In this document: one piece after another, positions 1,944 to 31,386 of the stretch | Position numbering within the stretch: the stretch's first letter is position 1 | Layout: each line of letters opens with the position of its first letter | Position numbers and translations under genes: made by a program | Virus record (IMG/VR): IMGVR_UViG_2713896900_000011 | Length of the DNA stretch: 31,386 bases | Strand: one strand, 5' to 3' | Source of the DNA: a virus | Lineage: Duplodnaviria; Heunggongvirae; Uroviricota; Caudoviricetes | Notes under the pieces: model-generated | Database searches by the model: none | What the model was told of the DNA's origin: nothing | What the model saw: the letters and a program-made list of their open reading frames with translations, nothing else

Positions 1944-1957
1944 TTTTCGTCACCTCC

Positions 1958-4825: not shown

Positions 4826-4881
4826 GGTTTTCTCACTTCTGAATCGGGGTTAACCGGTCAGCCAGGCTGACCGGATGAAAA

Positions 4882-5400: not shown

Positions 5401-5412
5401 CGGTCAGGCTCC

Positions 5413-6603
5413 TTAATTGCTGTTAACCGAGGTAACCAGACTTGCCAGGTATCTGGAAGTAATACGCTGGCGCAGGGTCAGGTTTTCGAGAGGAGGCACC
5501 GGGGTATAGTCGTAGTCGATATACAGTTTTCCGGCCTTGAGGGTTTCCGCATCATTGGCTTCTTCACTGAACCAGCATGTGCCATCCACGATATAACCGT
5601 TGTTTTTCAGTTCGCGGAATTTGGCATTAATGCCATCAATGATGTCACGAATCAGCGTTGCGGTAATTGGCTTATCAATAGCCCACATGTGCGCCTCGGC
5701 CATCGTGTCGGCCAGTACCTGCGCGGTGCGGGTGTAGCTTTCAAAGAGGAACAGCGGGTCATCAGAGCAGGTACGGTTACCCCAGAAGCGGAAGCCGTCG
5801 CGGCGAATCAGCGTAGTGATGCCTGACTCGTTAAGCAGGTCAGCATCAGTGCCGGACTTCTGCAAATCCCAGAATACAGAGGCGCTGATGCCGGTAACAC
5901 CATTTACCCCGACGTTGGACAGCGTTTTATGCCAGCCCTGCTCCTGGTCGATTTTGGCACGCAGCCCCAGCGCACGGGCGGTGGCATACGCGGTGGCAGT
6001 GGTACTGGTAACCGTATCCCATGCGAGGAAATCCGGCCAGATGACCATCAGCTCACGCTGGCTGAAATTCTGACGGTAGGCTTTTGCCTCGGAAATGGTT
6101 TTACAGCCCCATGCGCTAATATACCCGAATGCATTCAGTTCCTGGCATACCGATGCCAGTGCGACGGCAACCTCTTTGGTGTCCAGTCCCGGTACGCCGA
6201 GAATGCGTGGTTTAACGCCGGTAACCGACTCAGCCCCCATCAGGGCTTTCAGTCCGGTGTACTGACCGTTTTCGTCGGTGGTGCCGATGATATTGGAAAC
6301 GGTCTGCGCGAGTTTCGTTTCCTCGTCGTCGCCGGTGCCGTCTTCCACACGCACGACAACGGTGACCGGTTTTGACTGGTCGGCGATGGCCTGCAACGAT
6401 GCCGCCAGCGTGCCTTTTTTACCGGCCTTTGCAATTGCGCTCTGCACATTGGTTATCAGCACAGGTTTATTGAGGGGGAAGGTTTCCGCATCCGCATCGC
6501 TGGCCGTGCAGACCATGCCGACAATGGCAGTGGATACGGTGGAAATGACGCGGGTGCCGTCGTTAATCTCCAGCACCTGCACGCCGTGATGATAGTCACT
6601 CAT
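5413..6603 (-). CDS. FI: Contractile tail sheath protein FI (396 aa)
   Basis: Size and synteny match P2 gpFI, the first gene of the tail operon. Confidence 0.9.
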   Translation of the reverse strand: MSDYHHGVQVLEINDGTRVISTVSTAIVGMVCTASDADAETFPLNKPVLITNVQSAIAKAGKKGTLAASLQAIADQSKPVTVVVRVEDGTGDDEETKLAQTVSNIIGTTDENGQYTGLKALMGAESVTGVKPRILGVPGLDTKEVAVALASVCQELNAFGYISAWGCKTISEAKAYRQNFSQRELMVIWPDFLAWDTVTSTTATAYATARALGLRAKIDQEQGWHKTLSNVGVNGVTGISASVFWDLQKSGTDADLLNESGITTLIRRDGFRFWGNRTCSDDPLFLFESYTRTAQVLADTMAEAHMWAIDKPITATLIRDIIDGINAKFRELKNNGYIVDGTCWFSEEANDAETLKAGKLYIDYDYTPVPPLENLTLRQRITSRYLASLVTSVNSN

Positions 6604-6902
6604 CCGTTTAACTCCGTGGTTAATGGGTGCAACTATTTTCTGTTGTGCAGAGCATGAGACGCTATTTGACCTGACTGGTCAGTGGATGAAACAACAGATA
6701 AAGAAAAGGCGGACAATTCGCCCGCTATCCTGATTTGTACTCACTCATTTTCCAACTGACAGTTTACATAGCCCAAACGCTATCAAATCTGACAGCCTGC
6801 TTTGAGCGAACAGCAGACATTCATTAATATGTTTGTTAGGCTAACTTTATATGATGATTACTGAAATTGACCTTAGTTTGAGAATTGCATTAGGGGAATA
6901 AA
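6604..6902. promoter_or_regulatory. Divergent intergenic region: expected late promoter for the FI operon (- strand) and promoter/RBS of the cargo gene (+ strand)
   Basis: A 299-bp AT-rich non-coding gap between divergent genes. An AGGGGA Shine-Dalgarno lies about 7 nt before the ATG at 6903. A TGTTGT...ACAACA inverted repeat sits at 6641-6646 and 6691-6696. I could not place exact promoter elements. Confidence 0.4.
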
Positions 6903-8009
6903 ATGGATGTCAATGAACTTAGAGAGTTACTTATCAAGTATAATGGCCTTCAAAATACTGATGAAGTCTATACGTTTTATTATGATGAAACGAATAACAT
7001 TCGAAAACTATATTTAAAAGATTCTGGCTTTAATGTTGTAAAGGCGGATAACTTCATCCTTGCAGGAATACTACACAAAGGGTTAAGCACTGACAGCGAT
7101 TATTCAACCCTGTTTCAAAAGCTTAATCTTCAAAAAAGTGTCAATGAGTTAAAACTCAGATATATCGCTAAGGGTAGTTTTTTGGATATGCTTAAATCTG
7201 ATAAGCTTTTAATTATTCTAAACTGGCTTATCGAAAACAATTTCTACATCCATTATTTTAATCTTAATATCACATACTGGTCTATTATTGACATTGTTGA
7301 TTCTATTATTGGAGAGCTACACAATCCTTTTTATATCATGAACCACATGTCACTTAAGAGCGATTTTTATGAGCTTGCCAATAGCAATCCCGATGTTTTC
7401 CTGAATGCTCTACATAAATTTAACTACCCCGATATTCCAGAAGAAAAAATTTATGAGTTTTGCCTCTGGCTTATCGATTTTACATGCATGCACAGTTGTA
7501 TGCTGCCAGATTTTCGAGCACACGCACTCGAAAATTTGGTTAAAGAATCTCTAAAAATCGAAGAACTACCGTTCATATCGGGATTTCATGGTCGAAAACT
7601 GATCGATAGCTTTATGGTATTTTATTTAAGAAACTTGTATCTATTTAAAAATTCCGTTCACATATTTGATGAAGAAAAAAGCATTCAAGATGAAGTTAAA
7701 AACTTCCCGTTAACTGAAAATGGCATACCAATACAGAATCATGAATTCGTTAAATCCCACAACTCAGAGGCTATCCAACTATCTGATGTTATCGCAGGCT
7801 TTTTGGGTAAGTATTTTTCTTACTTAAAAGATGTAAATGACGAGCAATTAGCGATTGATAAGTCAGCCTTAACGAGCAAGCAATTTAAGACCCTTTCTGC
7901 GTTAAAACACATTATTGATGTTTCTGATGATGTTAGCAGAGGATTTTTTAATGAAGTTAGCAGCGAGGGAGAGCGACGGAGAAATAATCGTTTTTTACAT
8001 GGCGTATAA
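6903..8009 (+). CDS. AT-rich cargo protein (368 aa) at the Z/fun-equivalent locus; DUF3800-like motifs; candidate anti-phage/abortive-infection protein
   Basis: A visibly low-GC gene on the opposite strand to the flanking late genes, with a strong SD. The N-terminal motif YTFYYDETNN and the C-terminal motif AIQLSDVIAGFL resemble the conserved DESG and QxADxxAG motifs I associate with DUF3800. The family assignment is from memory, not a search. Confidence 0.6.
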   Translation: MDVNELRELLIKYNGLQNTDEVYTFYYDETNNIRKLYLKDSGFNVVKADNFILAGILHKGLSTDSDYSTLFQKLNLQKSVNELKLRYIAKGSFLDMLKSDKLLIILNWLIENNFYIHYFNLNITYWSIIDIVDSIIGELHNPFYIMNHMSLKSDFYELANSNPDVFLNALHKFNYPDIPEEKIYEFCLWLIDFTCMHSCMLPDFRAHALENLVKESLKIEELPFISGFHGRKLIDSFMVFYLRNLYLFKNSVHIFDEEKSIQDEVKNFPLTENGIPIQNHEFVKSHNSEAIQLSDVIAGFLGKYFSYLKDVNDEQLAIDKSALTSKQFKTLSALKHIIDVSDDVSRGFFNEVSSEGERRRNNRFLHGV

Positions 8010-8108
8010 TCGTAAGGGGTAAATTCTGCTTTTGGCACAGGGCGAACTGTCAGATTGGTTTTCACTCTGTGCCATAGATGTATAAACTCACATCAGAGCT
8101 AATACGAT

Positions 8109-8687
8109 TTATTGCGGCATTTCTGGCCATTCTATATCCGGAGTATTTTCCGACTGAACGCGATTCAGTAGCACACGGTATTTTTTCCAGTGTGTCAGGC
8201 TTAACCTTTCTTCCTCGGTAGCCATATCTAAATCGACAGCATCCTGCAGCGTGGCAATAATTTCACCTGCATATGCAATCAGCTCTTTCTTCTGAGAGTC
8301 AGCCGCTCTGACAAGCGCATCACGCTCTGCATTCTCATCATTCACCCACGCATTTCCGTTCCATTTCTGATAATCCCCATCCGGGGAAATGGCTGTCACG
8401 TCTGGAGGTAATGCGCCAAGTTCAGAAATATAAATGGCTGCTCCTGTTTTTGTTTCATAGACAGTCTTTCCACGATGGTCTTCCACCAGATCCCATTTCA
8501 TTTCATCTGCATTGAAAACGGCGGCAAAACCCACCGGAATATCTGGAGGTGCAATGTCTGTACTGTTTGCTGGAAGACCTGTATGCGGCGGAATATATGC
8601 GTCACTTTCGCCAATAAATTCATTGGTTCCATCAAGTAAATTGAAAACGCGGATAGTTTGTGTCTCTGCACTCATTCTGAAAGTCAT
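8109..8687 (-). CDS. G: Tail fiber assembly protein G (192 aa)
   Basis: Immediately downstream of H, with its ATG overlapping the H stop by one nucleotide. Size and position are typical of P2 gpG/Tfa chaperones. The true start may be the internal MSAETQ. Confidence 0.8.
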
Positions 8688-10504
8688 TATGCCAGCCTCA
8701 CAATATAGTTATACGCAACGTTTTTTACGGTGTTCTCTGAATTACCTGTGGCACTTACAGTGACGGTATGACTATGCGCGCCAATCGCAATGGAATGGCT
8801 GTGAGCACCAATGCCAACCGTGTGATTATGCTGACCAATGTCGACTGTATGGGCGTGTGCTCCCGCAGAGCTTGACACCTGGTTGGTTCCTGATACCTGT
8901 ACGCGTTGTTTACCCCCGATGGAGTCACCACCGTAACGACCACCGACAGTGTGCGTATGTGCTCCTGTATTGTTTGTCGTTTTTGTCCCGTGGTTAAACG
9001 TGCTAACCGTTTTTGTCCCGTAATCAAACGAGCTGGTCGTTTTCGTTCCCAAATCCGTACTGGATGCACTGGCACTGTGGGTATGCGATTTAATGCCATC
9101 CTGTTCCTGAGACAATACAGCGCGACCACTGGCGGGTTTGCCCTTGATTGTCCAGCCGCGCATATCTGGAATCACCCCTGACGGATAAGCTGCTGCAAGC
9201 AGGGGATAGGCTGCTTTATCAAAAGTCTGCCCCTGCATCAGGGCATAGCCTGTAGGTACTGAATCAGAAGGCCACGGGATTGGAGCGCCTACCGGAAATG
9301 AATCCTGCGGTGTCCATGGTGTCCAGCCACCCGTTGAATACTGGCTGCGGGTATAGCTTCTTGATGTGTTATAGACATAGTAAATTTGTGTTATTCCGGC
9401 ATTTCTAAGCACAACCAGAGTACCTGCAAGATTCTCCGGGTATTTCAGCGATGCGCTTGTATTCGCATTCAGTGGCTGATGGTACAGTCCCGGCGTTTTG
9501 TAATTATCCAGATTCTGGTTTGCACCAATCCCAATACTCTGACCGTTAAAAATATCCTGCGATGTAATATTGACATCATTGGTCAGCGGTTTGCCATTGA
9601 CCTTACGCTCACCAGGAACGCGCCCGTTTGCATTGTCATTCGCGGCTTTAACCGCTTTTGGAGTCGCGGCAAGTGTTTCAGAATCGCTGTTAGTGGCGCT
9701 GCTTAACTGAACAATCCCTTTTCGTGCCGTGGTGGCGTCCTGTGCAGTGTATTTGCCATTAGCAAGGTCATATGCTGTCTTAACCGCCTTTGGCGTTGCT
9801 GCGAGCGTCTCAGATTCGCTGTTGATGGCACTACTTAGCTGAACAAGACCTTTTCGCCCCGTGCTGGCGTCCTGTGCGGTATATTTCCCGTTAGCAAGGT
9901 CATAGGCGTCCTTTACCGCTTTCGGCGTTGCGGCCAGTGTTTCAGACGTGCTGTTGGTCGCGCTGCTTAACTGAGTAAAACCTTTTGCGGTCAGCGAGGC
10001 GTCCGGGTGACGTCGTGACTGTTCATGCTCTGCAATCTTGTCATCAACGTAATCCTGCGTTGCCATCACCGTTGTGGTGTCAATGGTCAGCTCCACTGAG
10101 GCCACACTGCTGACGATGATGACCATGCGGCAGGTCTGCGAACGCCCTGAGCCTTCGGCAAGGGCAGGCTTATAACTTTCGGCCATGTTCGCCACGGCAA
10201 TTAACGTTCCCGCATCATCGTACAGGCCAAGCTCACGCGTCCAGAAACCGCCCACCTCCGGCGGGATAACCAGCTCTGCGATAATATAATTACTGTGTCG
10301 ATTGCCCTGACTGATTTTATTCAGGGTATGTCGCCAGACCTCATTAACAAGTTTTGTCTGTCCGGCATCCGGGACAGGCAATTTACCACCACCATCCCCG
10401 ACGGCCATCGTGGTAATGTTGACCTTCCGCCCTCCCGGCGCGGTTGCCGCTGCCAGCTTTGCTGCACCGGCAGTGGTGATAACGGTTTTGAATTTTGTGC
10501 TCAT
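8687..10504 (-). CDS. H: Tail fiber protein H (605 aa)
   Basis: The N-terminal region matches the P2 gpH position after I. It contains three tandem ~40-aa repeats ([12 protein letters not shown]...) and a C-terminal His-x-His array. Confidence 0.88.
9634..10000 (-). repeat. Three tandem ~120-bp coding repeats inside tail fiber gene H
   Basis: The protein shows LSSATNS(T/E/D)[12 protein letters not shown](D/T/A)[14 protein letters not shown] three times; the DNA shows matching near-identical ~120-bp units. Boundaries are approximate. Confidence 0.7.
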
Positions 10505-16463: not shown

Positions 16464-17207
16464 TTAACTGGCTTTCTTTTTCGGGCGTCCACGTTTTGCC
16501 GGTGTCACGCTCCGTGTCTTACGCGGGGCGCGGGTGACCGCTTTGGGCTGCGGCTCCGGCTTCGGTTTCAGCTCCCGCTCCAGTCGTTCAATCTCTTTTT
16601 TGACGCCTGCCTGACAGTCGAGCTGTGTCGCGCGTTGCAGGTGCGCCAGCGCACCGGCGGCATCACCACCGTCACGCAGAAACAGACCGGTGATTTTGTG
16701 CAGCTTTGCGCGCACTTCATCAGGCATGTCAGCAGCGGCAGTCAGTTCAAGGGTCTCCGTCAGCAGGCGGGTATCAACAGACTCACCGGCCGAGTGGGCG
16801 CGCATGGCCGCAAGCGCCACCTCCTCGGTGAACATGTACGGCGGGGTACGGCGGTGTTTACCCGGCATGGTCAGACCGTACTTCAGGGCATAACGGGCAA
16901 TCTCCAGCGCACCGGCAATATCGCCGGTATCCAGACGCCACAGCATGACCGTCATCAGAATGTCATCCTGTGCACCTTTGCCCTGCTCCAGCACGCCGTT
17001 CACCCACGGCAACCAGAACGGCAGCAGTTCGCGTTTTTTCGCGGCCTTAAGCTCTTTTGAATAAATCGCTTTCAGTGTGCGCTGGTCTGCGGCGAGCTTA
17101 ACCAGCATCTGCTCATAGACAGTTGCATGTCGCAGCGGGGCGGCTTCCCGCTGCGCGGTCATCGCTGCCGAGACCCGCATCATGTGGCGCTGTGCGGGAC
17201 TCGTCAT
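16464..17207 (-). CDS. M: Terminase small/endonuclease subunit M (247 aa)
   Basis: Size and synteny match P2 gpM; the C-terminus is basic and Lys/Pro-rich. Confidence 0.88.
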   Translation of the reverse strand: MTSPAQRHMMRVSAAMTAQREAAPLRHATVYEQMLVKLAADQRTLKAIYSKELKAAKKRELLPFWLPWVNGVLEQGKGAQDDILMTVMLWRLDTGDIAGALEIARYALKYGLTMPGKHRRTPPYMFTEEVALAAMRAHSAGESVDTRLLTETLELTAAADMPDEVRAKLHKITGLFLRDGGDAAGALAHLQRATQLDCQAGVKKEIERLERELKPKPEPQPKAVTRAPRKTRSVTPAKRGRPKKKAS

Positions 17208-19370: not shown

Positions 19371-21143
19371 ATGACCATCACCACAGACACCACTCTTTTA
19401 CACGACCCGCGTCGTCAGGCGGCGCTGCTGTACTGGCAGGGGTTTTCCGTGCCGCAGATTGCCGCCATGTTGCAGATGAAACGCCCGACGGTGCAGAGCT
19501 GGAAACAGCGCGACGGCTGGGACAGCGTTGCCCCCATCAGCCGTGTCGAAATGAGTCTGGAAGCGCGGCTGACCCAGCTCATCATCAAACCGCAGAAAAC
19601 CGGCGGTGACTTCAAGGAAATTGACCTGCTGGGACGTCAGATTGAACGACTGGCACGGGTAAACCGCTACAGTCAGACCGGCAACGAGGCAGACCTTAAT
19701 CCGAACGTCGCTAACCGCAACAAAGGCGGGCGCCGCAAACCGAAAAAGAATTTTTTCAGTGACGAGGCCATCGAAAAGCTGGAGCAGATTTTCTTTGAGC
19801 AGTCTTTCGAATATCAGTTGCACTGGTATCGCGCCGGGCTTGAGCACCGCATCCGCGATATCCTGAAATCCCGCCAGATTGGCGCGACGTTTTATTTTTC
19901 CCGCGAGGCGCTGCTGCGCGCCCTGAAAACCGGTCATAACCAGATTTTTCTGTCGGCCAGTAAAACACAGGCGTATGTGTTCCGCGAATACATCATCGCC
20001 TTTGCCCGGCTGGTTGACGTTGACCTGACCGGTGACCCGATTGTCCTGGGCAATAACGGCGCAAAACTGATTTTTCTCGGCACCAACTCCAACACCGCAC
20101 AGAGCCATAACGGCGACCTGTACGTCGATGAGATTTTCTGGATCCCGAATTTTCAGGTACTGCGTAAGGTGGCATCAGGTATGGCCTCACAGAGTCACCT
20201 GCGCTCGACCTATTTCTCCACCCCGTCCACGCTGGCGCACGACGCCTACCCGTTCTGGTCGGGTGAACTGTTCAACCGGGGACGCGCCAGCGCCGCCGAA
20301 CGCGTGGAAATCGACGTCAGTCATAACGCCCTTGCCGGAGGTCTTCTCTGTGCGGACGGCCAGTGGCGGCAGATTGTCACCATTGAGGACGCCCTGAAAG
20401 GTGGCTGCACGCTGTTCGACATTGAGCAGCTTAAACGCGAAAACAGCGCCGACGATTTTAAAAACCTGTTCATGTGTGAATTTGTTGACGACAAGGCGTC
20501 GGTGTTCCCGTTCGAGGAGCTGCAACGCTGCATGGTCGATACGCTGGAAGAATGGGAAGACTATGCACCGTTTGCCGCAAATCCGTTCGGCTCCCGCCCG
20601 GTATGGATTGGTTACGACCCGTCACACCGTGGCGACAGCGCCGGATGCGTGGTGCTGGCACCGCCGGTGGTGGCCGGTGGCAAATTCAGGATCCTTGAGC
20701 GTCACCAGTGGAAAGGCATGGACTTTGCCACCCAGGCAGAATCCATCCGCAAACTCACCGAAAAATATAACGTTGAATACATAGGGATTGATGCCACCGG
20801 CCTCGGTGTCGGTGTGTTCCAGCTCGTGCGCTCGTTCTATCCCGCCGCGCGCGATATCCGCTACACGCCGGAAATGAAAACCGCAATGGTGCTCAAGGCA
20901 AAAGACGTTATCCGCCGTGGCTGTCTGGAATATGACGTCAGCGCCACCGACATCACCAGCTCGTTTATGGCTATCCGCAAGACCATGACCAGCAGCGGAC
21001 GCAGCGCCACCTATGAGGCCAGCCGCAGCGAGGAAGCCAGCCACGCCGACCTCGCCTGGGCGACCATGCACGCCCTGTTAAATGAGCCACTCACCGCCGG
21101 TATCAGCACCCCGCTGACATCCACCATTCTGGAGTTTTACTGA
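19371..21143 (+). CDS. P: Terminase large (ATPase) subunit P (590 aa)
   Basis: The start MTITTDTTLL... gives 590 aa, equal to P2 gpP. The stop overlaps the Q start (TGATG). Confidence 0.9.
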   Translation: MTITTDTTLLHDPRRQAALLYWQGFSVPQIAAMLQMKRPTVQSWKQRDGWDSVAPISRVEMSLEARLTQLIIKPQKTGGDFKEIDLLGRQIERLARVNRYSQTGNEADLNPNVANRNKGGRRKPKKNFFSDEAIEKLEQIFFEQSFEYQLHWYRAGLEHRIRDILKSRQIGATFYFSREALLRALKTGHNQIFLSASKTQAYVFREYIIAFARLVDVDLTGDPIVLGNNGAKLIFLGTNSNTAQSHNGDLYVDEIFWIPNFQVLRKVASGMASQSHLRSTYFSTPSTLAHDAYPFWSGELFNRGRASAAERVEIDVSHNALAGGLLCADGQWRQIVTIEDALKGGCTLFDIEQLKRENSADDFKNLFMCEFVDDKASVFPFEELQRCMVDTLEEWEDYAPFAANPFGSRPVWIGYDPSHRGDSAGCVVLAPPVVAGGKFRILERHQWKGMDFATQAESIRKLTEKYNVEYIGIDATGLGVGVFQLVRSFYPAARDIRYTPEMKTAMVLKAKDVIRRGCLEYDVSATDITSSFMAIRKTMTSSGRSATYEASRSEEASHADLAWATMHALLNEPLTAGISTPLTSTILEFY

Positions 21144-22165
21144 TGAGCAAGAAAAAAGGGAAAACACCGCAACCTGCGGCAAAAAAAATGACCGCCAGCG
21201 CCCCGAAAATGGAGGCATTCACCTTTGGTGAGCCGGTGCCGGTACTCGACCGCCGTGACATTCTGGATTACGTCGAGTGCATCAGTAACGGCAGATGGTA
21301 TGAGCCACCGGTCAGCTTTACCGGTCTGGCAAAAAGCCTGCGTGCTGCCGTACATCACAGCTCCCCGATTTACGTCAAACGCAATATTCTGGCGTCGACA
21401 TTTATCCCGCATCCGTGGCTTTCCCAGCAGGATTTCAGCCGCTTTGTGCTGGATTTTCTGGTGTTCGGTAATGCGTTTCTGGAAAAGCGTTACAGCACCA
21501 CCGGTAAGGTCATCAGACTGGAAACCTCACCGGCAAAATATACCCGCCGTGGGGTGGAGGAGGATGTTTACTGGTGGGTGCCGTCCTTCAACGAGCCGAC
21601 ACCTTTCACGCCCGGCTCCGTGTTTCACCTGCTGGAGCCCGATATTAATCAGGAGCTGTACGGCCTGCCGGAATATCTCAGCGCCCTTAACTCTGCCTGG
21701 CTGAATGAATCGGCCACGCTGTTCCGCCGCAAGTATTACGAAAACGGCGCACATGCCGGATACATCATGTACGTCACCGATGCCGTGCAGGATCGCAACG
21801 ATATCGAAATGCTTCGCGAAAACATGGTGAAGTCGAAAGGCCGCAACAACTTTAAAAATCTGTTTCTCTATGCCCCGCAGGGGAAAGCCGACGGCATTAA
21901 AATTATCCCGCTCAGTGAAGTGGCAACGAAGGACGATTTTTTTAATATCAAAAAAGCCAGCGCCACTGACCTGCTGGACGCGCACCGCATCCCCTTTCAG
22001 TTGATGGGCGGCAAGCCGGAGAACGTCGGGTCGCTGGGTGATATTGAGAAAGTGGCAAAGGTCTTTGTCCGCAATGAGCTTATCCCGCTACAGGACAGGA
22101 TTCGGGAAATAAACGGCTGGCTTGACCAAGAAGTTATTAAATTCAAAAATTATAGCCTAGACTAG
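21143..22165 (+). CDS. Q: Portal (capsid) protein Q (340 aa)
   Basis: Size and synteny match P2 gpQ, co-transcribed with P. Confidence 0.9.
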   Translation: MSKKKGKTPQPAAKKMTASAPKMEAFTFGEPVPVLDRRDILDYVECISNGRWYEPPVSFTGLAKSLRAAVHHSSPIYVKRNILASTFIPHPWLSQQDFSRFVLDFLVFGNAFLEKRYSTTGKVIRLETSPAKYTRRGVEEDVYWWVPSFNEPTPFTPGSVFHLLEPDINQELYGLPEYLSALNSAWLNESATLFRRKYYENGAHAGYIMYVTDAVQDRNDIEMLRENMVKSKGRNNFKNLFLYAPQGKADGIKIIPLSEVATKDDFFNIKKASATDLLDAHRIPFQLMGGKPENVGSLGDIEKVAKVFVRNELIPLQDRIREINGWLDQEVIKFKNYSLD

Positions 22166-22182
22166 GTATTTTAGATAATAGC

Positions 22183-22200
22183 GCCGCTAGTAATAGCGGC
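22183..22200. terminator. Candidate bidirectional intrinsic terminator hairpin between convergent Q and the cargo operon
   Basis: GCCGCTA-GTAA-TAGCGGC: a 7-bp perfect stem with a 4-nt loop, flanked by T/A-rich sequence on both sides, lying between the Q stop (22165) and the last cargo stop (22220). Confidence 0.4.
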
Positions 22201-22219
22201 TTATAGTTCAGAAAAACAC

Positions 22220-22867
22220 TTATTCCTTCGGTTCATGATAGAAGTTTATGGGATAATGAATCACTTCATAATCTAAATTTGATACAGAATGTTTATGAGT
22301 ACTATAAAATACTAGTGGATTCTTATCACACTGCTGAATATTTATTTCTCTAGACGCATGAATTTTGGGCGCATTTTTAGTCAAGTAGGCAATATACTGT
22401 TGCATTACAGCAGAGCAAAGCTTATTTTTTGTATAGATAATTACACCACCCGATGCACTATCAACAGTCCCTGTACTATATCGCTCAGTAAGTTGCGAAT
22501 ATCCCTTAAAAAGGTACGAATATCCTGATGAGTGTTTCTTGGCTTCGCCATGCCATGTAAAATCTGCTAATTGAATTGTAATATCGCAATGACCGCGCTG
22601 ATTAACTTCATGATAAGCTCTTATCCCTAAGAATTCGTTATCTATTATTCCCAGAAGATGAAGTGTCAATTGGTCTTCGGTAAGTTCAAAGCCCATTTTG
22701 TTTGCATTTTGCTCAATTTTTCTTACTGCATAATCAAGTAACTCACGAACAAAAGCCTTAAAGTTATTATAAGATTCCATAGCATATGTCACCGCTGTAA
22801 GAATCTTATTAGCATTATCTATTACGTTATTTTTACGAATATCTGCCAGACTGAAACGTTGGACCAT
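22220..22867 (-). CDS. Cargo operon gene 3 (215 aa): hypothetical protein with a possible PD-(D/E)xK-like nuclease motif
   Basis: AT-rich. Its ATG lies 1 nt after the gene 2 stop and is preceded by a GGGGAG Shine-Dalgarno. The segment GHCDITIQLADFTWHGEAKK has the D-x13-E-x-K spacing of a PD-(D/E)xK core; this is an inference only. Confidence 0.6.
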   Translation of the reverse strand: MVQRFSLADIRKNNVIDNANKILTAVTYAMESYNNFKAFVRELLDYAVRKIEQNANKMGFELTEDQLTLHLLGIIDNEFLGIRAYHEVNQRGHCDITIQLADFTWHGEAKKHSSGYSYLFKGYSQLTERYSTGTVDSASGGVIIYTKNKLCSAVMQQYIAYLTKNAPKIHASREINIQQCDKNPLVFYSTHKHSVSNLDYEVIHYPINFYHEPKE

Positions 22868-22868
22868 G

Positions 22869-23288
22869 TCAACTCCCCACTTTCTTTAAAGAAAAGAAGG
22901 GGAAAATGAAATCCTCATAATCAGTTAAAATATCACCTGTTACAGGATGTTCAAATATATGATTTTTTTCCGCATCCATAACCTCACCAACGGTTACCGG
23001 ATAAAAATCGTCATTTTCATCAACAAAAAAATACTCCAATCTTAAAAGACTTACTTTAGGATTACATAAAACCTGAATGGCGATATAAATTTTATCGTTA
23101 TTTATTTCATCCGTAAAAGAAAGATTACCACCATTCTCTTTGATATACAGATTAACAAGATCTGGATAGCTCATTAAACAGTTTTTTTTACATTGCGGGG
23201 AGAGCTTCATCAATGCATTATAGAGAGCGCATGCGATTTCACCGACATTCGCATCAGTAACGCATATTTCTTTAATAATGTCTGCCAT
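22869..23288 (-). CDS. Cargo operon gene 2 (139 aa): hypothetical protein
   Basis: AT-rich. I take the start as the ATG at 23286-23288 (MADIIKEI...), preceded by a strong GGGAGG Shine-Dalgarno. The track's start 5 codons upstream overlaps that SD. Confidence 0.6.
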   Translation of the reverse strand: MADIIKEICVTDANVGEIACALYNALMKLSPQCKKNCLMSYPDLVNLYIKENGGNLSFTDEINNDKIYIAIQVLCNPKVSLLRLEYFFVDENDDFYPVTVGEVMDAEKNHIFEHPVTGDILTDYEDFIFPFFSLKKVGS

Positions 23289-23316
23289 TGATTTCCTCCC
23301 CATACCTACTACCTTC

Positions 23317-24480
23317 TTAAACGATTAAACTCATTAAACGTTCAAAATCGTCCCGTCCCAGACAATTATTAATAATAGCATAGTTTACTGACGTGGAGCT
23401 AGAACCTCCGAGGTAACGGCGAAGAGAGCCGGGAATGATCAACTCAAGATCATCATCTAGTGATAGAAGCACATTCACTCTTGAAATTTTTATACCAATC
23501 TTGTAAAGACCTATCTGCCCTACTGCTTTAATTCCTTCTTGGTTAAAGATATCATCACGCAAATCTTTTTTTGCTTCTTTTTTCTTTTCCTGATGCGTAG
23601 TTCCCTCTGGAGTATAGAAAGATAATTCAAAAACTTGATAATCGCTTGCATTAAAAGGATAGGTGTTTTGAGCAAAAATTTGTTCAATTAGAGGGAAAAA
23701 GTCTTTTTCTGTCGAAACAAAATCAGCCCCCATATAATCGTATAATTTTCTAACAATTACGGTTTTAGAAAATGTAATTGTCTCTCCAATAACATTTTTG
23801 GGAGCATCAATAAGTATATTGATAGTGTTATCTTGTATATTTAAAATACAAACATCAAAACATTGTCTTCTAACTTTCTTTTTGGCTATGATTTCATCGT
23901 AGCTTTGATATTGTGGGATTGTTTGCGGTGAGACCTTTTCTTTTATTACTTGCTCCCTGACTGATGAAAAAAGGGCTATCACTTGATTGCTGTCAGTAGA
24001 GCAAAAGATTAGTTGAGGGCTATTTTTAGGTGTGGATAATAACTGTTGCTCATTAAGAATGTAACTTGATACATTTTGTAAAATAGTAGTGTTTGCCCAT
24101 TCTGTCTGAATGGCTAAGCTTAGCCCTGTCATGGTTGGAGCATCAATTGCCAAAGAAAAAATAGCCTTATCGCCATAGAAAAACTGACTAAAAAGAAGGT
24201 CATTAATTTTCTTTAACAATGAGTCAAATTTAACTCTGTCCGTGTCTCTAATTTCAATCAACTGCTCTTTAACTTTATTAAAAGTCGCATCCTTACCGCG
24301 ACCAAGAGAAAAACCTAATGACGACAAAACAGATTTTACTATAGACCAACTTATTCTATTAAATAGACAATTCAGACTTTTTAGTTCAATGTCAGACAGT
24401 GACGATTGTACTGTATTATTTGCTGCTAATACAGCCTGAGGGACAGATGAATTTACTGTTGTAGGGACAATGCCTGTCAT
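23317..24480 (-). CDS. Cargo operon gene 1 (387 aa): hypothetical protein
   Basis: AT-rich. The track ORF begins at a TTG at 24525; the first ATG (24478-24480, MTGIVPTT...) has a GGAG Shine-Dalgarno about 6 nt upstream. I recognise no domain. Confidence 0.6.
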   Translation of the reverse strand: MTGIVPTTVNSSVPQAVLAANNTVQSSLSDIELKSLNCLFNRISWSIVKSVLSSLGFSLGRGKDATFNKVKEQLIEIRDTDRVKFDSLLKKINDLLFSQFFYGDKAIFSLAIDAPTMTGLSLAIQTEWANTTILQNVSSYILNEQQLLSTPKNSPQLIFCSTDSNQVIALFSSVREQVIKEKVSPQTIPQYQSYDEIIAKKKVRRQCFDVCILNIQDNTINILIDAPKNVIGETITFSKTVIVRKLYDYMGADFVSTEKDFFPLIEQIFAQNTYPFNASDYQVFELSFYTPEGTTHQEKKKEAKKDLRDDIFNQEGIKAVGQIGLYKIGIKISRVNVLLSLDDDLELIIPGSLRRYLGGSSSTSVNYAIINNCLGRDDFERLMSLIV

Positions 24481-24598
24481 TGCAAACTCCAGTTCCGCTA
24501 ACAAAACCTCTAAGAATATTGGCAAGCAAGTATCTTCAAATATCAGGGAAAGTCAATCCAATAGCTCTCTTTTTGCGATGGGAAACTGTTAGCGCGCA

Positions 24599-24617
24599 GT
24601 GCTTTCCCCGCCTCGCC
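24599..24617 (-). other. cos site (19-nt cohesive-end sequence)
   Basis: The minus strand reads GGCGAGGCGGGGAAAGCAC, which I recall as the P2 19-nt cohesive end. Confidence 0.75.
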
Positions 24618-24944
24618 TGCCCGCTTTATGGGGCGGTTTTAATGCAGATGCACGAACACGCCGGAGGCGCGCCAGCACCGGCGGCGCTCACACGTGACTT
24701 GGAAGGAAAACGCATGCGATTCGATGCAATAATGCATGCAGAGCTAAAAATGGCAGAACATACTGAAAAAACGCATAAAAAAACGGCATTCAGGTTGCCG
24801 GTTTGAGTCGGCTTCATTGTGGTTACTGGCCGCGCTATGCGCCAATAATACCAGGAGTCAATCTGATAACCAGCTAACGCCTCGCTACGCTCGTTGTTCA
24901 ACCCCGCCAGCCCTGAAAACAAGTTTCACGACTGGCGGCGTTCT

Positions 24945-25163
24945 CTATCGTCTGCGTGGTGGTGGCGTAACTCTTGATTGACCGATATGATTAAACCGCC
25001 CGTAATTATCCCGGACTATTTCGGCACACCCGACTAGCTCATCGGGCGTCAGATTTTCGTTGACCATAATCCGCTGTAAACGCTGAACAATAGCCATCAG
25101 CTTGATATTTTTAGTTTTATGGTGTGGTATCTCACCTGGTATTCTGTGCATTATCCAAGCCAC
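24945..25163 (-). CDS. Hypothetical small protein (72 aa)
   Basis: An ORF between the ASCH-like gene and cos, with nothing recognisable; the call rests on coding context only. Confidence 0.3.
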   Translation of the reverse strand: MAWIMHRIPGEIPHHKTKNIKLMAIVQRLQRIMVNENLTPDELVGCAEIVRDNYGRFNHIGQSRVTPPPRRR

Positions 25164-25606
25164 CCGTTTTGCTGTGCACGCTCCATCTGTTCATCTGAAT
25201 AGTTCCATGCTCCATCCGTGGCAACCATTGCCCCGCCAGACATCCCCGTCTCTGGTTCATACATAACAGCAAGGCCGAGCTGATGCATAATTTCATGATT
25301 AATTCTGAATACCAGGCCACGCTCACTAAGTTCTTTCCAGTTCACAATCTTATATGCGCCCGTATTAAGCAGCTCAATACTTAGCAAGACATAATCTTCC
25401 AGCCAGTCTGACAGGTCAGTAACATCTGTTATCCGGGCTTCAACCTTTCGCCCCGTAAACACACCCTGCACCCATTCATGCAAAATCAACGTGTCCCCGC
25501 ACTCATAATTACGGTCATTTTTCCGAAACTCTGCGCGTTTCTTTCCTTCCAGCACAAGGTCAAAATATTTTGCGTGCAGCTTTACCTCGTGAATTTTGGC
25601 CATCAT
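25151..25606 (-). CDS. Hypothetical protein (151 aa) with an ASCH/PUA-like N-terminal region and an HExxH motif
   Basis: The ATG at 25604-25606 lies 2 nt after the A stop, with a GGAG Shine-Dalgarno. The N-terminal half (KIHEVKLHAKYFDLVLEGKKRAEFRKNDRNYECGDTLILHEW) looks ASCH-like to me; the C-terminal half contains INHEIMHQLG (HExxH). Confidence 0.5.
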   Translation of the reverse strand: MMAKIHEVKLHAKYFDLVLEGKKRAEFRKNDRNYECGDTLILHEWVQGVFTGRKVEARITDVTDLSDWLEDYVLLSIELLNTGAYKIVNWKELSERGLVFRINHEIMHQLGLAVMYEPETGMSGGAMVATDGAWNYSDEQMERAQQNGWLG

Positions 25607-25608
25607 TT

Positions 25609-27888
25609 TCACTCCATTACTGTTGAGAATCCCGGCCACTCATCAGCGACCGGATACGTGAATTTTTTCCCGTCATAATTTACGGTCGCGCCACGCGCCA
25701 GCGCCTCAAGCTCCCATCGCTGCGGCCTGATACCGTTCTGAGCAAGGTCAACGCGGATACGGGTAATTTGCATTCTTTCCGACCGGGTCAGTCTGGCCGA
25801 TGGTGCAATTTCATGTGGTTTTAACGGGCTTCCGTTTCTTTGCTGACGACTTGGCGTTCTCCGACCGTGTTTTAATGCACCTCTGAGCGCCCTCACGACC
25901 TCCGGGTCACTCCATTCGATAACACCGTCATCAACCAGATTAAGCACTGCTGCGGCGTGCTCAGAAGGTGTGGGAGCCGGTAACGAAGTATCACCACCGG
26001 TGAGTTTTCCACAGTTATTGACAGGACTCCGAGGCGCGGCGATGCCGCTTTTTAACGTCAAAGGCTCAACGACCGGCACTTTCGGAACAATGCGCCAGTC
26101 CGTCGTTCTGGTGATATGAATATGACGCGCGCCGAGATGCGGCGCGTAAATGCCGACCACTCTCTCGACTTCTTCCTCGTACTCGTTAACTTCATCCGAC
26201 GGGCTACGGGCGACTCTGACAGTCTGGCAATCACGCGGAACATTTGCCCCACCCTGCGCGCTGATATACAACGCAAAATCACCACTGTCTGCGGCGGCAC
26301 GTGCAGCCTCAACGCGTTCGTCAAACTCATCAGCAATGCTGACGCCGCGAGGCAATTTGCGTAGTTCACGGTAAGCCCCCATTGTCGGCAGACCAACCGT
26401 TTTAAATTGCGGAATGCGCCACGTTGACGCCCATGCGGTAACAGCAGCAGCTGTGTCTTTCAGCGGCCTGCCGGTATCGTTATCGAGCTGCCCATCCAGT
26501 GCATAGCCGTCGATGTTTTTTGAAATGTATTTCGCGATATATCCCGCTGCACCGCCCCGGTTAAGGTGTTTTGCCTGAAAACGGTTTCGCGCGGCTCCTC
26601 TTTCGTCGCCATCCTCTTTGAGCGCATAGCGACGCATGATTTCGATAATCTGGTTACGCTGGCGTGGATTACAAAAAAGCATCATATGCCAGTGCGGTGT
26701 TCCATCGTGGTGTGGCTCGACGACTCGCAAACCGTAGACCTGTAAATCATTATCCTTGAATGCCGTGCGCATCAGGCTCCAGATACGGCAGAGATAACGC
26801 TGCGCATCCTTTGGATTAAATGCCTCATCGTTCCAGCCGTGATTTAGCTGGACGGTTTTACTTTCGCCTTTTCCGACCTGACGTGTCGGGTGATACTTTG
26901 ACGGCGTGGTCAGCGTGATAAACATCCCCACATCGCCCTCTGCGGCGGCGTAACGCTCAATACCGGCAATGGTGTTCATCAGCTCCATCCGGCGAATTTC
27001 TGGATTAGAAATACTGCCCATCACCTTACTGATAAGGTCGATGCGCTCGCCGGTTTCCCTGTTTTCAAGGTCACACGATTTAAGAAATTCCAGATTTGCC
27101 TGGCGGCGTGCACGCACATCACGAATGGCATGTTTACTGGCATAAGGAGAACGGTCTTTATTGACCTCCCCGACAGCAATCAGTAACGCCTCATGCCAGC
27201 GCATACGCTGGCCTTTAAGCTGACTAATCCACCACTCATCGTTAAACAGACGGGCAATGGCAGAATATGCCTGCCTCGTGGTCATCTGTCCTTTACGGTA
27301 TTTTTTCCAGTAGAGAGGGGAAATATTGAAAGCACGTGCAGCGCCAGCAACATGACCATAGAGGTGAGCCTGCGCCTCATCCGTAAACAGCGATTCTTTT
27401 TCGCCATGCGCATCCACCCAGGCATCGCAGAGTTCCTCATACATCATGAAAAGCTGCGATGAAATACGGGCGGCAAACTTTTTCAGCTCCTTATCATTCA
27501 TCCCCGGCAGACGCGCATAATGGTCACGCTCTACCAGAAACAGCAACGACGCGTCGGTATTCATTTCATGGCGCTGATTCACGCGCTCAATGCGCGGCCA
27601 TAAACGACGCTGAAAAGTGGATGTGAGGAAATAAAACCCGTGCACCGGGCTTTTATTGCGCCGGATGTAGTCATAGCGTGAAGTAAACAGCGAACGCAAA
27701 AAGTAAGGCAGGCGGTTAATCGTGGATAAAACACCTTGCACCTGACGCATCTCGTCACGTGTAAGGGGTCTTTCGCGCCCGACGGCCTCGCGTGGCGCGT
27801 TCCATGCATAAGCACCGGTAAACGTCTTACCGGTGCCTGCGGCAAATGCTGACGGAGGGACAAAATGCCCGGAGGCTTTAACGGCCAT
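25609..27888 (-). CDS. A: Replication initiation protein A (rolling-circle initiator, about 759 aa)
   Basis: The start MAVKASGHFVPPSAFAAGTGK... matches my recollection of the P2 gpA N-terminus (P2 gpA is 761 aa). The track's ORF starts 14 codons upstream at 27930. Confidence 0.85.
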   Translation of the reverse strand: MAVKASGHFVPPSAFAAGTGKTFTGAYAWNAPREAVGRERPLTRDEMRQVQGVLSTINRLPYFLRSLFTSRYDYIRRNKSPVHGFYFLTSTFQRRLWPRIERVNQRHEMNTDASLLFLVERDHYARLPGMNDKELKKFAARISSQLFMMYEELCDAWVDAHGEKESLFTDEAQAHLYGHVAGAARAFNISPLYWKKYRKGQMTTRQAYSAIARLFNDEWWISQLKGQRMRWHEALLIAVGEVNKDRSPYASKHAIRDVRARRQANLEFLKSCDLENRETGERIDLISKVMGSISNPEIRRMELMNTIAGIERYAAAEGDVGMFITLTTPSKYHPTRQVGKGESKTVQLNHGWNDEAFNPKDAQRYLCRIWSLMRTAFKDNDLQVYGLRVVEPHHDGTPHWHMMLFCNPRQRNQIIEIMRRYALKEDGDERGAARNRFQAKHLNRGGAAGYIAKYISKNIDGYALDGQLDNDTGRPLKDTAAAVTAWASTWRIPQFKTVGLPTMGAYRELRKLPRGVSIADEFDERVEAARAAADSGDFALYISAQGGANVPRDCQTVRVARSPSDEVNEYEEEVERVVGIYAPHLGARHIHITRTTDWRIVPKVPVVEPLTLKSGIAAPRSPVNNCGKLTGGDTSLPAPTPSEHAAAVLNLVDDGVIEWSDPEVVRALRGALKHGRRTPSRQQRNGSPLKPHEIAPSARLTRSERMQITRIRVDLAQNGIRPQRWELEALARGATVNYDGKKFTYPVADEWPGFSTVME

Positions 27889-29464: not shown

Positions 29465-29658
29465 TTCCAGACCCTCCGGCTTTTCAGAAAGGTCAGAGCC
29501 TTTTTTAACGGACTCTGTTTTTTGGTGCGGATAATGATTCCCTTGCGTCCCTTCCCGTGGGTGATGGTGAAGTCAATCGCCCTTGGGCTTTCGTTACGCA
29601 ATAACTGAGCAATACAACGCGGCTCATTCATAATCACAACCCCATCCACAAAAGCCAT
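29461..29658 (-). CDS. Hypothetical small protein (65 aa) between cox and B
   Basis: A small basic ORF with start/stop overlaps to both neighbours, in the position of P2 orf78. Confidence 0.45.
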   Translation of the reverse strand: MAFVDGVVIMNEPRCIAQLLRNESPRAIDFTITHGKGRKGIIIRTKKQSPLKKALTFLKSRRVWK

Positions 29659-29921
29659 GCATCACGCTGTTCAACCGGTCGGTTATAAAACGCCTCACGT
29701 ACAGCGCGATTAAACTCAGGAATGAAAACCCATTTTTCACCGGCACGAGCCTTCGGTTTGCAAGGATCACGCAATTCAATAATTGGTAATTTATTTGCCT
29801 TCACCATTTCACTGACGGCTGTCTTTGGCTTCCCTAATAAATCAGCAAATTTATCCACATGAACCGCATCAAGCGGATACTGAATCACATAATTTTCAGC
29901 GTCCATATATGGTACCCTCAT
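29634..29921 (-). CDS. cox: Cox (excisionase / repressor of the lysogenic promoter), about 90-95 aa
   Basis: The C-terminal half (...GEKWVFIPEFN...RDAWLLWMGL) resembles P2 Cox (...GEYWVYLPAWN...RDGWLMWLGL) as I remember it. It is the first gene of the early operon, divergent from C. The start may be the internal MDAENY. Confidence 0.8.
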   Translation of the reverse strand: MRVPYMDAENYVIQYPLDAVHVDKFADLLGKPKTAVSEMVKANKLPIIELRDPCKPKARAGEKWVFIPEFNRAVREAFYNRPVEQRDAWLLWMGL

Positions 29922-30042
29922 AGGATCCAGCCCTTTCTAAACCACTCAAAACCGTTTAGACGCTGGTTTATTCTCAAATCAATGGAACCTATATAGGTTC
30001 CAGTTTTGAGGGAATTTAGTCCCTATATAGGCACCATGTCAA
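29922..30042. promoter_or_regulatory. Immunity switch region (divergent Pe/Pc) with two CCTATATAGG palindromes
   Basis: An 18-bp perfect palindrome GGAACCTATATAGGTTCC at 29984-30001 and a second CCTATATAGG at 30022-30031, 34 bp apart, in the 121-bp gap between divergent cox and C. Confidence 0.6.
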
Positions 30043-30336
30043 ATGAAATTAAGCGAAAAGATTAAGGCCTTGCGTGAGGCTGAAGGGCTAAGCCAATCAA
30101 AATTCTGTGAAATCATAGAGTTACCGCTAAGCACACTTAAAAAATATGAAGGAGGAAACTTTGAACCCGGTGGCACAGCTTTGCTAAAAATCACTATGCA
30201 TCCCACATTCCAAAAATATGCTCTATGGCTTATGACAGATAAAACCGCGCCGGACGCAGGACAAATCGCACCGGCTCTCGCGCACATTGGGCCAGAGTCA
30301 ACAGAGTCCAACCACTCCGCGAAAAGGATTGGCTAA
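30043..30336 (+). CDS. C: Immunity repressor C (97 aa)
   Basis: The size and the C-terminal motif (...FQKYALWLMTDKTAPDAGQIAPALAHIGPE...) match P2 C repressor (...FTKYTLWFMTNQIAPESGQIAPALAHFGQ...) as I remember it. It is divergent from cox and upstream of int. Confidence 0.85.
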   Translation: MKLSEKIKALREAEGLSQSKFCEIIELPLSTLKKYEGGNFEPGGTALLKITMHPTFQKYALWLMTDKTAPDAGQIAPALAHIGPESTESNHSAKRIG

Positions 30337-30405
30337 CTCTATATAAAGATTACATTTTCACCATTTGCTACCAAGATGGTGAATACAGCGCCGGAGGGCT
30401 TTCTT

Positions 30406-31386
30406 ATGGCAATTAAGAAGCTCGATGATGGTCGCTATGAAGTGGACATTAGACCTCGCGGTCGCGACGGAAAACGCATCCGCAGGAAATTCGAAAGAAA
30501 AGCTGAAGCACTAGCATTTGAGCGATACACAATCGCCAATGCCAGTCAGAAAGAATGGGGAGGCCAGCGAGCAGACCGCCGAACTTTGAGTGAGTTGCTG
30601 GACATCTGGTGGAAATATCACGGGCAAAACCACGAGCATGGAACAAAAGAGTTTAATCATCTACTCAAAACCATCAGCGGCATAGGTGATATACCAGTGA
30701 GCAGGATGAGCAAAAGGGCTTTGATGGATTATCGTTCCATGCGACTACGTGATGGTATCAGTGCCGCAACGATAAACCGTGACATGTACCGATTATCCGG
30801 CATGTTCACAAAATTAATTCAATTGGATGAATTTTCCGGGCAACATCCAATTCACGGACTGCCGCCACTGGCGGAGGCCAACCCTGAAATGACGTTCCTG
30901 GAAAAAGCAGAAATCGAAAAACTGTTAAATGTTTTGGCTGGTGATGACTTACTTGTCGCGCTTTTATGTCTGAGCACTGGAGGAAGATGGACGGAAGTTG
31001 CCACGCTAAAACCAGCACAGATTACAAATTGCAGGGTTACCTTCCTGAAAACCAAAAACGGTAAAAAGCGAACCGTGCCGATTTCTGAGGAACTGGAGAA
31101 AAAAGTTAAAGAGGAGGCCAGCGCCAAATTATTCAAAGTTGATTATGAGAAATTTTGCGGGATTTTACGCAGAGTGAAACCTGATATACCACCCAATCAG
31201 GCAACCCACATCCTGCGGCATACATTCGCAAGCCATTTCATGATGAATGGGGGCAATATAATCGCACTGCAACAGATTCTGGGACATGCGAGCATTCAGC
31301 AGACGATGGCCTATGCGCACCTTGCGCCTGACTACCTGCAAAATGCCGTCGCTCTGAATCCACTAAAAGGCGGAGTGACGTTATAA
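30406..31386 (+). CDS. int: Tyrosine integrase (about 326 aa)
   Basis: The C-terminus carries the tyrosine-recombinase catalytic region (...HILRHTFASHFMMNGGNIIALQQILGHASIQQTMAYAHL...). I prefer the ATG at 30406 (MAIKKLDDGRYEV...) because it has a GGAGGG Shine-Dalgarno; the track's start is 30376. The gene ends at the last base of the window. Confidence 0.85.
   Translation: MAIKKLDDGRYEVDIRPRGRDGKRIRRKFERKAEALAFERYTIANASQKEWGGQRADRRTLSELLDIWWKYHGQNHEHGTKEFNHLLKTISGIGDIPVSRMSKRALMDYRSMRLRDGISAATINRDMYRLSGMFTKLIQLDEFSGQHPIHGLPPLAEANPEMTFLEKAEIEKLLNVLAGDDLLVALLCLSTGGRWTEVATLKPAQITNCRVTFLKTKNGKKRTVPISEELEKKVKEEASAKLFKVDYEKFCGILRRVKPDIPPNQATHILRHTFASHFMMNGGNIIALQQILGHASIQQTMAYAHLAPDYLQNAVALNPLKGGVTL

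Follow-up and report, generated by a model that had tools for sequence, protein, structure and literature searches.

Results

The window analysed here is a 31,386-nucleotide stretch of viral DNA (Caudoviricetes; IMG/VR record IMGVR_UViG_2713896900_000011) that holds a whole P2-like prophage, which has ogr (4-219) at one end and int (30376-31386) at the other and, at ~31.4 kb compared to 33.6 kb for P2, reaches 94% of the P2 length. Read in the sense of the P2 map, which corresponds to the minus strand of the window, the gene order is int, C, cox, B, A, an orf91-like ORF, a 72-aa ORF, cos, three cargo ORFs, Q and P. Replication gene A (25609..27888, minus strand) encodes a protein with 97.6% amino acid identity to P2 gpA over residues 1-759, and next to it on the same strand lie the orf91-like ORF (25151-25606), which carries DUF3850 and DUF7415 according to Pfam, and the 72-aa ORF (24945-25163) on the A side of cos, with a match to phrog_11386 in this pair. 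The initial annotation of this DNA had described two small ORFs as the only occupants of the A side and had placed the cargo between cos and Q, a layout that our map reproduces. This A-side pair (24945..25606) represents the minimal, cargo-free state of that side, in that the A-to-cos distance is ~990 bp in the window while across 70 loci among the matches listed it has a minimum of 907 bp and a median of 2705 bp. A terminator scan found a hairpin followed by a T-run at 24784..24800 on the minus strand, downstream of A and orf91 and upstream of cos, which would serve as the terminator of the A/orf91 operon.

On the other side of cos, whose 19-nt cleavage core lies at 24599..24617, a promoter-like site at 24529..24556 (minus strand) consists of a -35 element TTGACT at 24556-24551 and a -10 element GATACT at 24534-24529 and matches 9 of 12 consensus positions in a consensus scan. 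The three cargo genes that follow on the same strand encode proteins of 387 aa (gene 1, 23317..24480), 144 aa (gene 2, 22869..23303) and 215 aa (gene 3, 22220..22867). Between this operon and Q, a hairpin at 22183..22200 fits the terminator pattern on both strands in the terminator scan, and it may act as a terminator common to the cassette and to Q. The portal gene Q (21143..22165, plus strand) encodes 340 aa with 98% identity to P2 gpQ, and both terminase genes are full length, P for the large subunit (19371..21143, plus strand; 99.8% amino acid identity to P2 gpP) and M for the small subunit (16464..17207, minus strand; 98.4% identity to P2 gpM). For cargo gene 1 we also considered a TTG start at 24525, which would give 402 aa and is probably too long; the ATG at 24480 is preferred because it and its ribosome-binding site are conserved in the cassette of the 186-like phage L125 and because it is the RefSeq start in E. 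coli STK77-E. The GATTGAC motif, which resembles a -35 element, the GGAG ribosome-binding site and the ATG are all kept in the 64%-identical L125 cassette, and the cassette thus appears to have a promoter-like site of its own that reads away from cos. Since 118 nt separate the conserved ATG from the 19-mer, the earlier estimate of about 120 bp between cargo and cos core stands.

The integrity of the remaining genes was assessed by tblastn with 41 P2 proteins against the window. Full-length genes encoding products with 91-100% amino acid identity to P2 were found for Q, P, O, N, M, L, X, Y, K, lysA, lysB, R, S, V and W, and likewise for J, I, FI, FII, E, T, U, D, ogr, B and A. Tail-fibre genes H and G are full-length ORFs but divergent, matching P2 over part of their length, and int, C and cox form a heterologous module with 43-52% identity to P2. 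The same search saw no disruption of the essential P2 genes in the window and returned no counterpart of orf30, fun(Z), tin or old.

We compared the cohesive-end sequence with the annotated P2 genome (NC_001895). The letters at 24599-24617 read gtgctttccccgcctcgcc on the plus strand and GGCGAGGCGGGGAAAGCAC on the minus strand, and the latter is identical to P2 cosL (1-19) and cosR (33575-33593), so the identification of this 19-mer as the P2 cohesive end in the initial annotation proves to be correct without a single mismatch. In the whole window GGCGAGGCGGGGAAAGCAC has one exact match, and this remains the only match when up to three mismatches are allowed, at which stringency ~0.01 would be expected by chance. 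The orientation is also that of P2, from A through cos to Q. Around the 19-mer, the match to P2 extends for ~29 nt towards A and for 8 nt towards Q: attaaaaccgcccc(ata)aagcgggc(a) stands directly before the 19-mer and tgcgcgct directly after it, both shared with P2. The P2 layout given in the initial annotation was accurate as well: NC_001895 has tin and old on the A side, in the stretch from orf91 to cosR, and Q has its stop codon at 187. The 167 bp between cosL and that codon hold the tQ terminator (annotated 160-181) alone.

We built a column-wise conservation profile of 114 distinct P2-like and P4-like cos regions (among the matches listed), all of which have the exact 19-mer. In these 114 regions, most columns between about -29 and +25, the 19-mer included, reach at least 90% conservation, with weaker A-side conservation reaching -35 and with positions -16, -13 to -10 and -1 at 65-89%. 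On the Q side conservation stays at 96% or more and then falls sharply, to ~60%, at the eighth nucleotide beyond the 19-mer; among canonical P2-like phages, P2 positions +26 to +60 are 60-80% conserved. Together the 29 conserved A-side nucleotides, the 19-mer and the 7 nt TGCGCGC on the Q side define a core of 55 bp, which lies at 24592..24646 on the minus strand of the window. This length, obtained here from conservation, equals that of the published '55-bp core sequence' common to P2, 186 and P4, which PMC5694545 attributes to Ziermann and Calendar (1990). From -29 to +25 the window departs from the consensus at -10 and -1 only, both intrinsically variable positions, and it matches the consensus at every highly conserved column of the P2/P4 profile. 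By analogy with P2, the gpM/gpP terminase would recognise a compact core of ~55 bp and would nick it in a staggered fashion to leave 19-nt 5' cohesive ends, and the recognised core would be lopsided, extending 29 nt from the cut towards A and just 7 nt towards Q. Because the essential P2 genes are full length, with H and G divergent, and the conserved cos core is intact, the prophage looks packageable, in line with the earlier suggestion that a packaging site is present and that the prophage may still be packaged. Prophages of the P2 type are poorly inducible by SOS.

We next compared the position of the cargo with that in related phages using an exact-pattern scan of IMG/VR for the 19-mer, which recovered at least 120 loci bearing the exact 19-mer, related contigs included. 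Loci were oriented on cos and classed by comparison with two genes of the window, Q and A, and four genes of P4 (psu, sid, alpha and int). Among the matches listed, 92 P2-like contigs carry cos together with a complete Q 3' end. In 84 of these 92 listed contigs the cos-to-Q distance is 173-189 bp, and in the other eight (~9%) it is 946-3221 bp, meaning that cargo intervenes; most of these eight leave the canonical sequence right after TGCGCGC. The Q-side inserts of the IMG/VR contigs have a GC content of 33-37%, and PADLOC assigned to them Drt2, Avs5, PD-T4-4 and a type IV retron (RT plus 2TM), as well as an ATPase pair resembling HEC-02/PD-T4-4 and a PDC-S02-like protein, with two inserts left without assignment. 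Of 75 deposited Peduovirus records, 70 have the canonical cos-Q arrangement. In Peduovirus pro147, which like the IMG/VR contigs with Q-side cargo is known here from sequence alone, the exact 19-mer is followed by an Ec48-type retron reverse transcriptase and effector and then by a 340-aa portal, and a second reverse transcriptase lies on the A side. In phiCTX, cosL (1-21) is followed by ctx, which has its own promoter and terminators, and then by Q.

P4-like satellites use the same side of cos for their cargo. In 23 P4-like loci among the matches listed, psu ends ~168-177 bp before the 19-mer (216 bp in one), which is the A-equivalent side, and in 17 of the 23 a P4-type int lies beyond cos, with variable cargo spanning the interval from cos to int on the Q-equivalent side. 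The cloned P4 loci in Table S2A of Rousset et al. have the same cos-cargo junction as the P4-like IMG/VR loci. These satellites share with the window the cos core, the constant side bearing the 29-nt conserved flank and variable cargo that begins 7-8 nt after ...GGAAAGCAC TGCGCGC on the same side; they differ from it in having no Q gene, in their psu-cos-cargo-int order and in being bounded by int at the far end of the cargo.

The region that these comparisons describe has been recognised before. Rousset et al. 2022 (PMC9122126) define the P2 defence hotspot as the cos-proximal gpA-gpQ region and do not tell its two sides apart, and those of their clones in which both cos and cargo are present in the listed sequence (old-tin, 3HP and DprA-PRTase) have the cargo on the A side. 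The cosL-Q interval is itself termed a hotspot in PMC5694545, with reference to Dodd and Egan 1996 and Nakayama 1999, and retrons Ec67 and Ec86 are reported to occupy the cosL-Q position of 186-related prophages (Dodd and Egan 1996). Further members of the family resemble the window in part. ORF1-4 of phiRSY1 are a P2-family example of Q-side (cosL-Q) cargo. PhiCTX, like the window, has its cargo between cos and the portal gene, with transcription directed away from cos, but the cargo is a toxin gene and the cos is a different 21-nt sequence. Pro147 agrees with the window in the exact P2 19-mer, in a junction that follows cos directly and in a portal of 340 aa whose 3' end has been replaced; it differs in cargo, which is a retron in pro147 and, in the window, a nuclease gene together with genes for an RdgC-like protein and a small protein. 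Like the window locus, the gpA-gpQ hotspot as a whole (PMC9122126; de Sousa et al. 2026, PMC13586616) holds AT-rich accessory cargo beside cos, varies between otherwise near-identical prophages and has an empty allele.

Judged by its place in the sequence, the cargo operon occupies the Q-side sub-site of this known cos-proximal accessory and defence hotspot, and by the same comparison the Q-side sub-site is the minority one in P2-like phages and lies on the same side as the P4 satellite hotspot. The initial annotation had regarded the insertion point as different from the canonical one. This is right for P2 itself, in which a 167-bp spacer containing tQ leads from the 19-mer to Q and in which old and tin lie on the opposite side, compared to 2.4 kb of cargo before Q in the window; it does not make the position new, since the eight survey contigs, pro147, phiCTX and the literature (PMC5694545) document it as a recurrent one in the family.

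We then characterised the cassette itself. PADLOC, Pfam and NCBIfam gave no match for the three cargo proteins, weak Pfam hits with E values of 0.03-0.07 being below the cut-off and disregarded. The PADLOC v2 models, which gave no match in the scan of the cassette, presumably include 3HP. Searches of PHROGs matched the cargo proteins to families of unknown function only (phrog_11490 for gene 2), and a full-text literature search for the RefSeq accessions of the cassette found no mention of them. The product of gene 1 is predicted to have an RdgC-like or TBP-like fold, the resemblance to RdgC being partial (TM 0.33-0.41), and it may encode a nucleic-acid-binding sensor. The product of gene 2 has a fold without assignment and is always encoded between genes 1 and 3. 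The model of the gene 3 product has a PD-(D/E)xK restriction-endonuclease-like fold in which the D...ExK motif is invariant, and gene 3 is therefore a putative PD-(D/E)xK effector nuclease. The cassette is none of the validated systems of PMC9122126 or PMC13586616. Among those systems, Rst_3HP also consists of three hypothetical proteins encoded in the P2 hotspot and protects against P1 (Rousset). We rejected identity with it on the grounds that the E1114 proteins have ~346, 349 and 226 aa compared to 387, 144 and 215 aa here and that the sequences differ. The RefSeq accessions of the cassette were not found in the Rousset supplements.

Only one of 5426 complete E. coli genomes, STK77-E, holds the cassette, with 99.6% nucleotide identity and in the same place next to a different A side, and its presence or absence differs between near-identical prophages. 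A protein-cluster search found homologues of cargo genes 1 and 3 in ~37 clusters, of which the named ones are from Enterobacterales except for one Turicibacter MAG on a 2.9-kb contig; the named homologues of both genes are all annotated 'hypothetical' and none has a Pfam domain. Our estimate of prevalence rests on this search because a scan of GTDB species representatives gave only four cassette loci. The three-gene order is kept in each of the eight loci examined. In L125, whose proteins are 64% identical, gene 1 has the cos variant GGCGTGGCGGGGAAAGCAT 124 nt upstream of it and gene 3 is succeeded by the portal gene, while in Klebsiella KP12_3 (51%) the cos variant GGCGTGGCGGGGATACGAG and then cgcgcgc lead into the cassette and the portal gene. 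A 51%-identical E. coli variant of the cassette adjoins the portal gene, and in Plesiomonas and Rosenbergiella prophages the order is A, cassette, Q. In two Klebsiella lambdoid prophages the cassette still has a decayed cos on one flank (GGCGTGGCGGAGATACGAA) and, on the other, 86 codons from the 3' end of Q, which indicates that a piece of a P2-family phage entered these prophages as one unit. No P4-borne copy was found among the P4-like IMG/VR loci listed or the cassette loci examined. In every P2-family context examined the cassette adjoins cos on the Q side, and the maintenance of this position at 48-64% protein identity and next to three cos variants indicates that the arrangement is compatible with phage propagation.

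Based on its location, its low GC content and the predicted folds of its products, anti-phage defence is the probable function of the cassette, a candidate system that would comprise an RdgC-like nucleic-acid-binding sensor, a small partner and a PD-(D/E)xK nuclease effector. That it is in addition a previously undescribed defence system whose native place is the slot beside cos on the Q side in P2-family phages is a proposal that we put forward tentatively, at somewhat below even odds. In a bolder version of this proposal, the constant cos-adjacent position might be functional rather than historical; for instance, the cassette might sense or act on DNA ends, cohesive or linear, when phages or satellites enter the cell, and such end-sensing, if true, would be one way to explain why a cos remnant was carried into the lambdoid prophages.

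A competing account of the cassette is that it does not act against phages and instead functions in toxin-antitoxin-type addiction, in counter-defence or against satellites, or in phage DNA metabolism linked to the cos ends. It draws on the failure of any known PADLOC defence model to match, on reports of non-defence cargo in the gpA-gpQ hotspot, namely partition systems and cytolethal distending toxin, on the invariable place of the cassette beside cos together with the cos remnant that travelled with it, and on the nature of RdgC, the closest fold to cargo gene 1, as a DNA-binding recombination modulator. However, the occupants of the Q-side sub-site in sister phages are recognised defence systems, and the low GC content, promoter-like site and polymorphism between near-identical prophages described above, together with the pairing of a nuclease effector with a putative sensor, which is typical of defence architecture, all point the other way. 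The link between cassette and cos is also more simply explained if the unit of recombination spans the cos core to the Q 3' end. We therefore regard a role outside anti-phage defence as unlikely, if still deserving of consideration, and retain candidate defence as the preferred reading of the cassette.

The boundaries of the cargo indicate how it may have arrived. GC content is 30-40% in the module, with 33% in the three-gene operon, compared to ~55% in the phage DNA around it. On its A side the window shares 97% identity with a prophage of E. coli KTa005 in which both sides of cos are free of cargo, and this identity stops at 24591, which is cos +8, placing the left junction at 24591|24590. 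At the other end, the Q DNA is near-identical to P2 until ~22100, and the stretch at ~22102-22165 (~65 nt), which would derive from a diverged source, differs at many codon third positions, and gpQ ends 4 aa early (340 compared to 344 aa in P2); the pro147 portal has a divergent Q 3' end of the same type. The sequence of the P2 spacer and tQ was not found between cos and Q in the window, where the hairpin at 22183-22200 stands instead. These two limits define an exchanged segment of ~2.49 kb (~22102-24590) that replaces the usual ~185 bp spacer, tQ and the last ~65 nt of Q. With junctions at the edge of the cos core and inside the Q 3' end, the module would have been acquired by recombination with another P2-family phage that already bore the cassette at the cos-Q position, and the crossovers would lie in or beside cos and inside Q. 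Rousset et al. 2022 (PMC9122126) speculate that cohesive ends may seed exchanges at the hotspot. A P4 satellite was considered as donor of the Q-side cargo on account of the identical junction and was rejected, as no P4-like locus listed bears the cassette; in a published analysis the exchange of defence genes between P2 and P4 is almost nil (PMC13586616).

Discussion

Our comparisons indicate that 24599-24617 is a functional-type cos of a complete and probably viable P2-like (Peduovirus) prophage. The window shares with P2 the 19-mer, its orientation to A and Q and the 29-nt and 7-nt flanks, and it encodes near-identical gpM and gpP terminase genes in cis. We assign a probability of roughly 0.85 to the reading that the cos of a complete P2-like prophage is intact, that the cargo sits in a documented, less common slot and that the packaging signal is untouched. 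The initial annotation had raised the concern that cargo so close to cos could affect the sequences recognised by terminase. Conservation and precedent argue against this: the divergence starts where the conserved core ends, 7-8 nt beyond the cut site, and P4 has unrelated DNA from that point, so that disruption of terminase recognition by the Q-side cargo is unlikely.

Put as a rival reading, the same concern is that loss of the native Q-side flank (P2 27-185) has removed accessory sites for terminase or host factors, which would impair packaging and leave an effectively defective prophage. The canonical cos-Q spacer is near-constant in P2-like phages, at 183-189 bp with 60-80% conservation per column, and the canonical arrangement found in 84 of the 92 contigs among the matches listed and in 70 of the 75 deposited Peduovirus records lends this idea some weight; the conservation at +26 to +60 could arise because these positions add modestly to the efficiency of packaging, and not from common descent alone. 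Nonetheless, P4 satellites, which depend on the same terminase for packaging, are unrelated in sequence from +8 on, and nine independent cargo types occur at the same junction in otherwise intact P2-like genomes, while phiCTX, an isolated phage, carries ctx between cos and Q. The cassette has moreover kept its place beside cos through divergence to ~50% identity and across three cos variants, and this persistence in divergent phages is hard to reconcile with a packaging defect. Together these observations make an impaired packaging site very improbable. We give marginally less credence still to the view that the window is a cryptic remnant whose cos match is a conserved relic without current function, which has in its favour that the window is bounded by ogr and int, leaving the att sites outside the compared sequence, and that the divergence of int, C and cox (only 43-52% identical to P2) and of H and G means that function is not readable from P2 identity alone, but which has against it full-length essential head, terminase, lysis and replication genes, ogr and tail genes other than H and G at 91-100% amino acid identity, a cos core with no substitution at highly conserved positions and the ordinary occurrence in P2-like phages of variable tail fibres and of heterologous int/C/cox modules.

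An intact, packageable cos with cargo in the Q-side slot therefore remains the preferred reading, and both the cos site and the slot are ordinary P2-family biology, from which the slot itself raises no new question. What our survey adds is that the gpA-gpQ hotspot is really two sub-sites split by cos, the Q side being filled in ~9% of the contigs listed. Its junction lies 7-8 nt from the cut, as it does in P4, which indicates that the packaging signal is compact on this side and suggests a safe placement for payloads in transducing particles based on P2 or P4. The junction also provides a concrete breakpoint for the study of hotspot recombination, the mechanism of which is termed unresolved in PMC9122126 and PMC13586616. 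Finally, the three-gene cassette is a new, uncharacterised addition to the cargo known in the gpA-gpQ hotspot: a compact and unannotated candidate defence system of P2-family phages with a predicted nuclease effector, which is easy to clone and test.

Exchange around the cos site

The three-gene cassette, which encodes an RdgC-like protein, a 144-aa protein and a PD-(D/E)xK nuclease, is also found outside P2-like genomes. Two Klebsiella lambdoid prophages (L126 7810-10511 and L137 ~5800-8483) carry, between their replication genes and antiterminator region, a P2-family fragment of ~2.7 kb made up of three parts: a decayed cos (GGCGTGGCGGAGATACGAA), these three genes and what remains of the portal gene 3' end (86 codons). 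The entire cos-to-Q' module has been transferred between unrelated phage types.

In the sister prophage of E. coli STK77-E (L003), whose cassette is 99.6% identical to that of the window, the ~900 bp from the end of gene A to cos (5141-6035) hold no annotated gene and are unrelated to the A side of the window, and we therefore conclude that the A and Q sides recombined independently. Each sub-site can also be filled on its own account, as in Peduovirus pro147 (L138), where reverse-transcriptase cargo occupies both: a 514-aa reverse transcriptase on the A side (1902-3446) and an Ec48-type retron, comprising a reverse transcriptase and a membrane effector, on the Q side (3997-5891). The orf91 homologue of the window (25151-25639, minus strand) is longer than its P2 counterpart (~151-162 aa versus 109 aa) and has, besides DUF3850/ASCH, an extra C-terminal DUF7415 domain; the alignment with P2 orf91 covers only its first 75 residues.

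The 19-mer of cos itself varies. Because cassette-bearing P2-family phages have at least three distinct 19-mers (GGCGAGGCGGGGAAAGCAC, GGCGTGGCGGGGAAAGCAT and GGCGTGGCGGGGATACGAG), an exact-19-mer scan under-samples the family. The loci behind these variants are a 186-like phage (L125 7858-7876), a further locus (L133 5854-5872) and the 3HP clone of Rousset Table S2A (three hypothetical proteins at the P2 hotspot), and they share a constant GCGGGC...GGCG.GGCGGGG part followed by (T/C)GCGCGC.

Other variable modules of the prophage

The tail-fibre genes H and G (8109-10504, minus strand) form a swapped host-range module: H (605 aa versus 669) matches P2 H over its first 251 residues only, and G is just 40% identical to P2 G in a partial alignment of residues 80-175. 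The genes int, C and cox (29655-31386) are only 43-52% identical to those of P2, with neighboring orf78 and B 99-100% identical, and constitute a heterologous immunity and integration module. The prophage is therefore probably heteroimmune to P2 and probably integrates at a different site.

The Z/fun position, the second P2 hotspot, lies between G and FI and is filled in the window by an AT-rich ORF of 368 aa with a DUF3800 domain (6903-8009, plus strand), which PADLOC matches to the candidate system PDC-S51 (E 1e-106). Both classical variable loci of this prophage thus hold candidate defence cargo.
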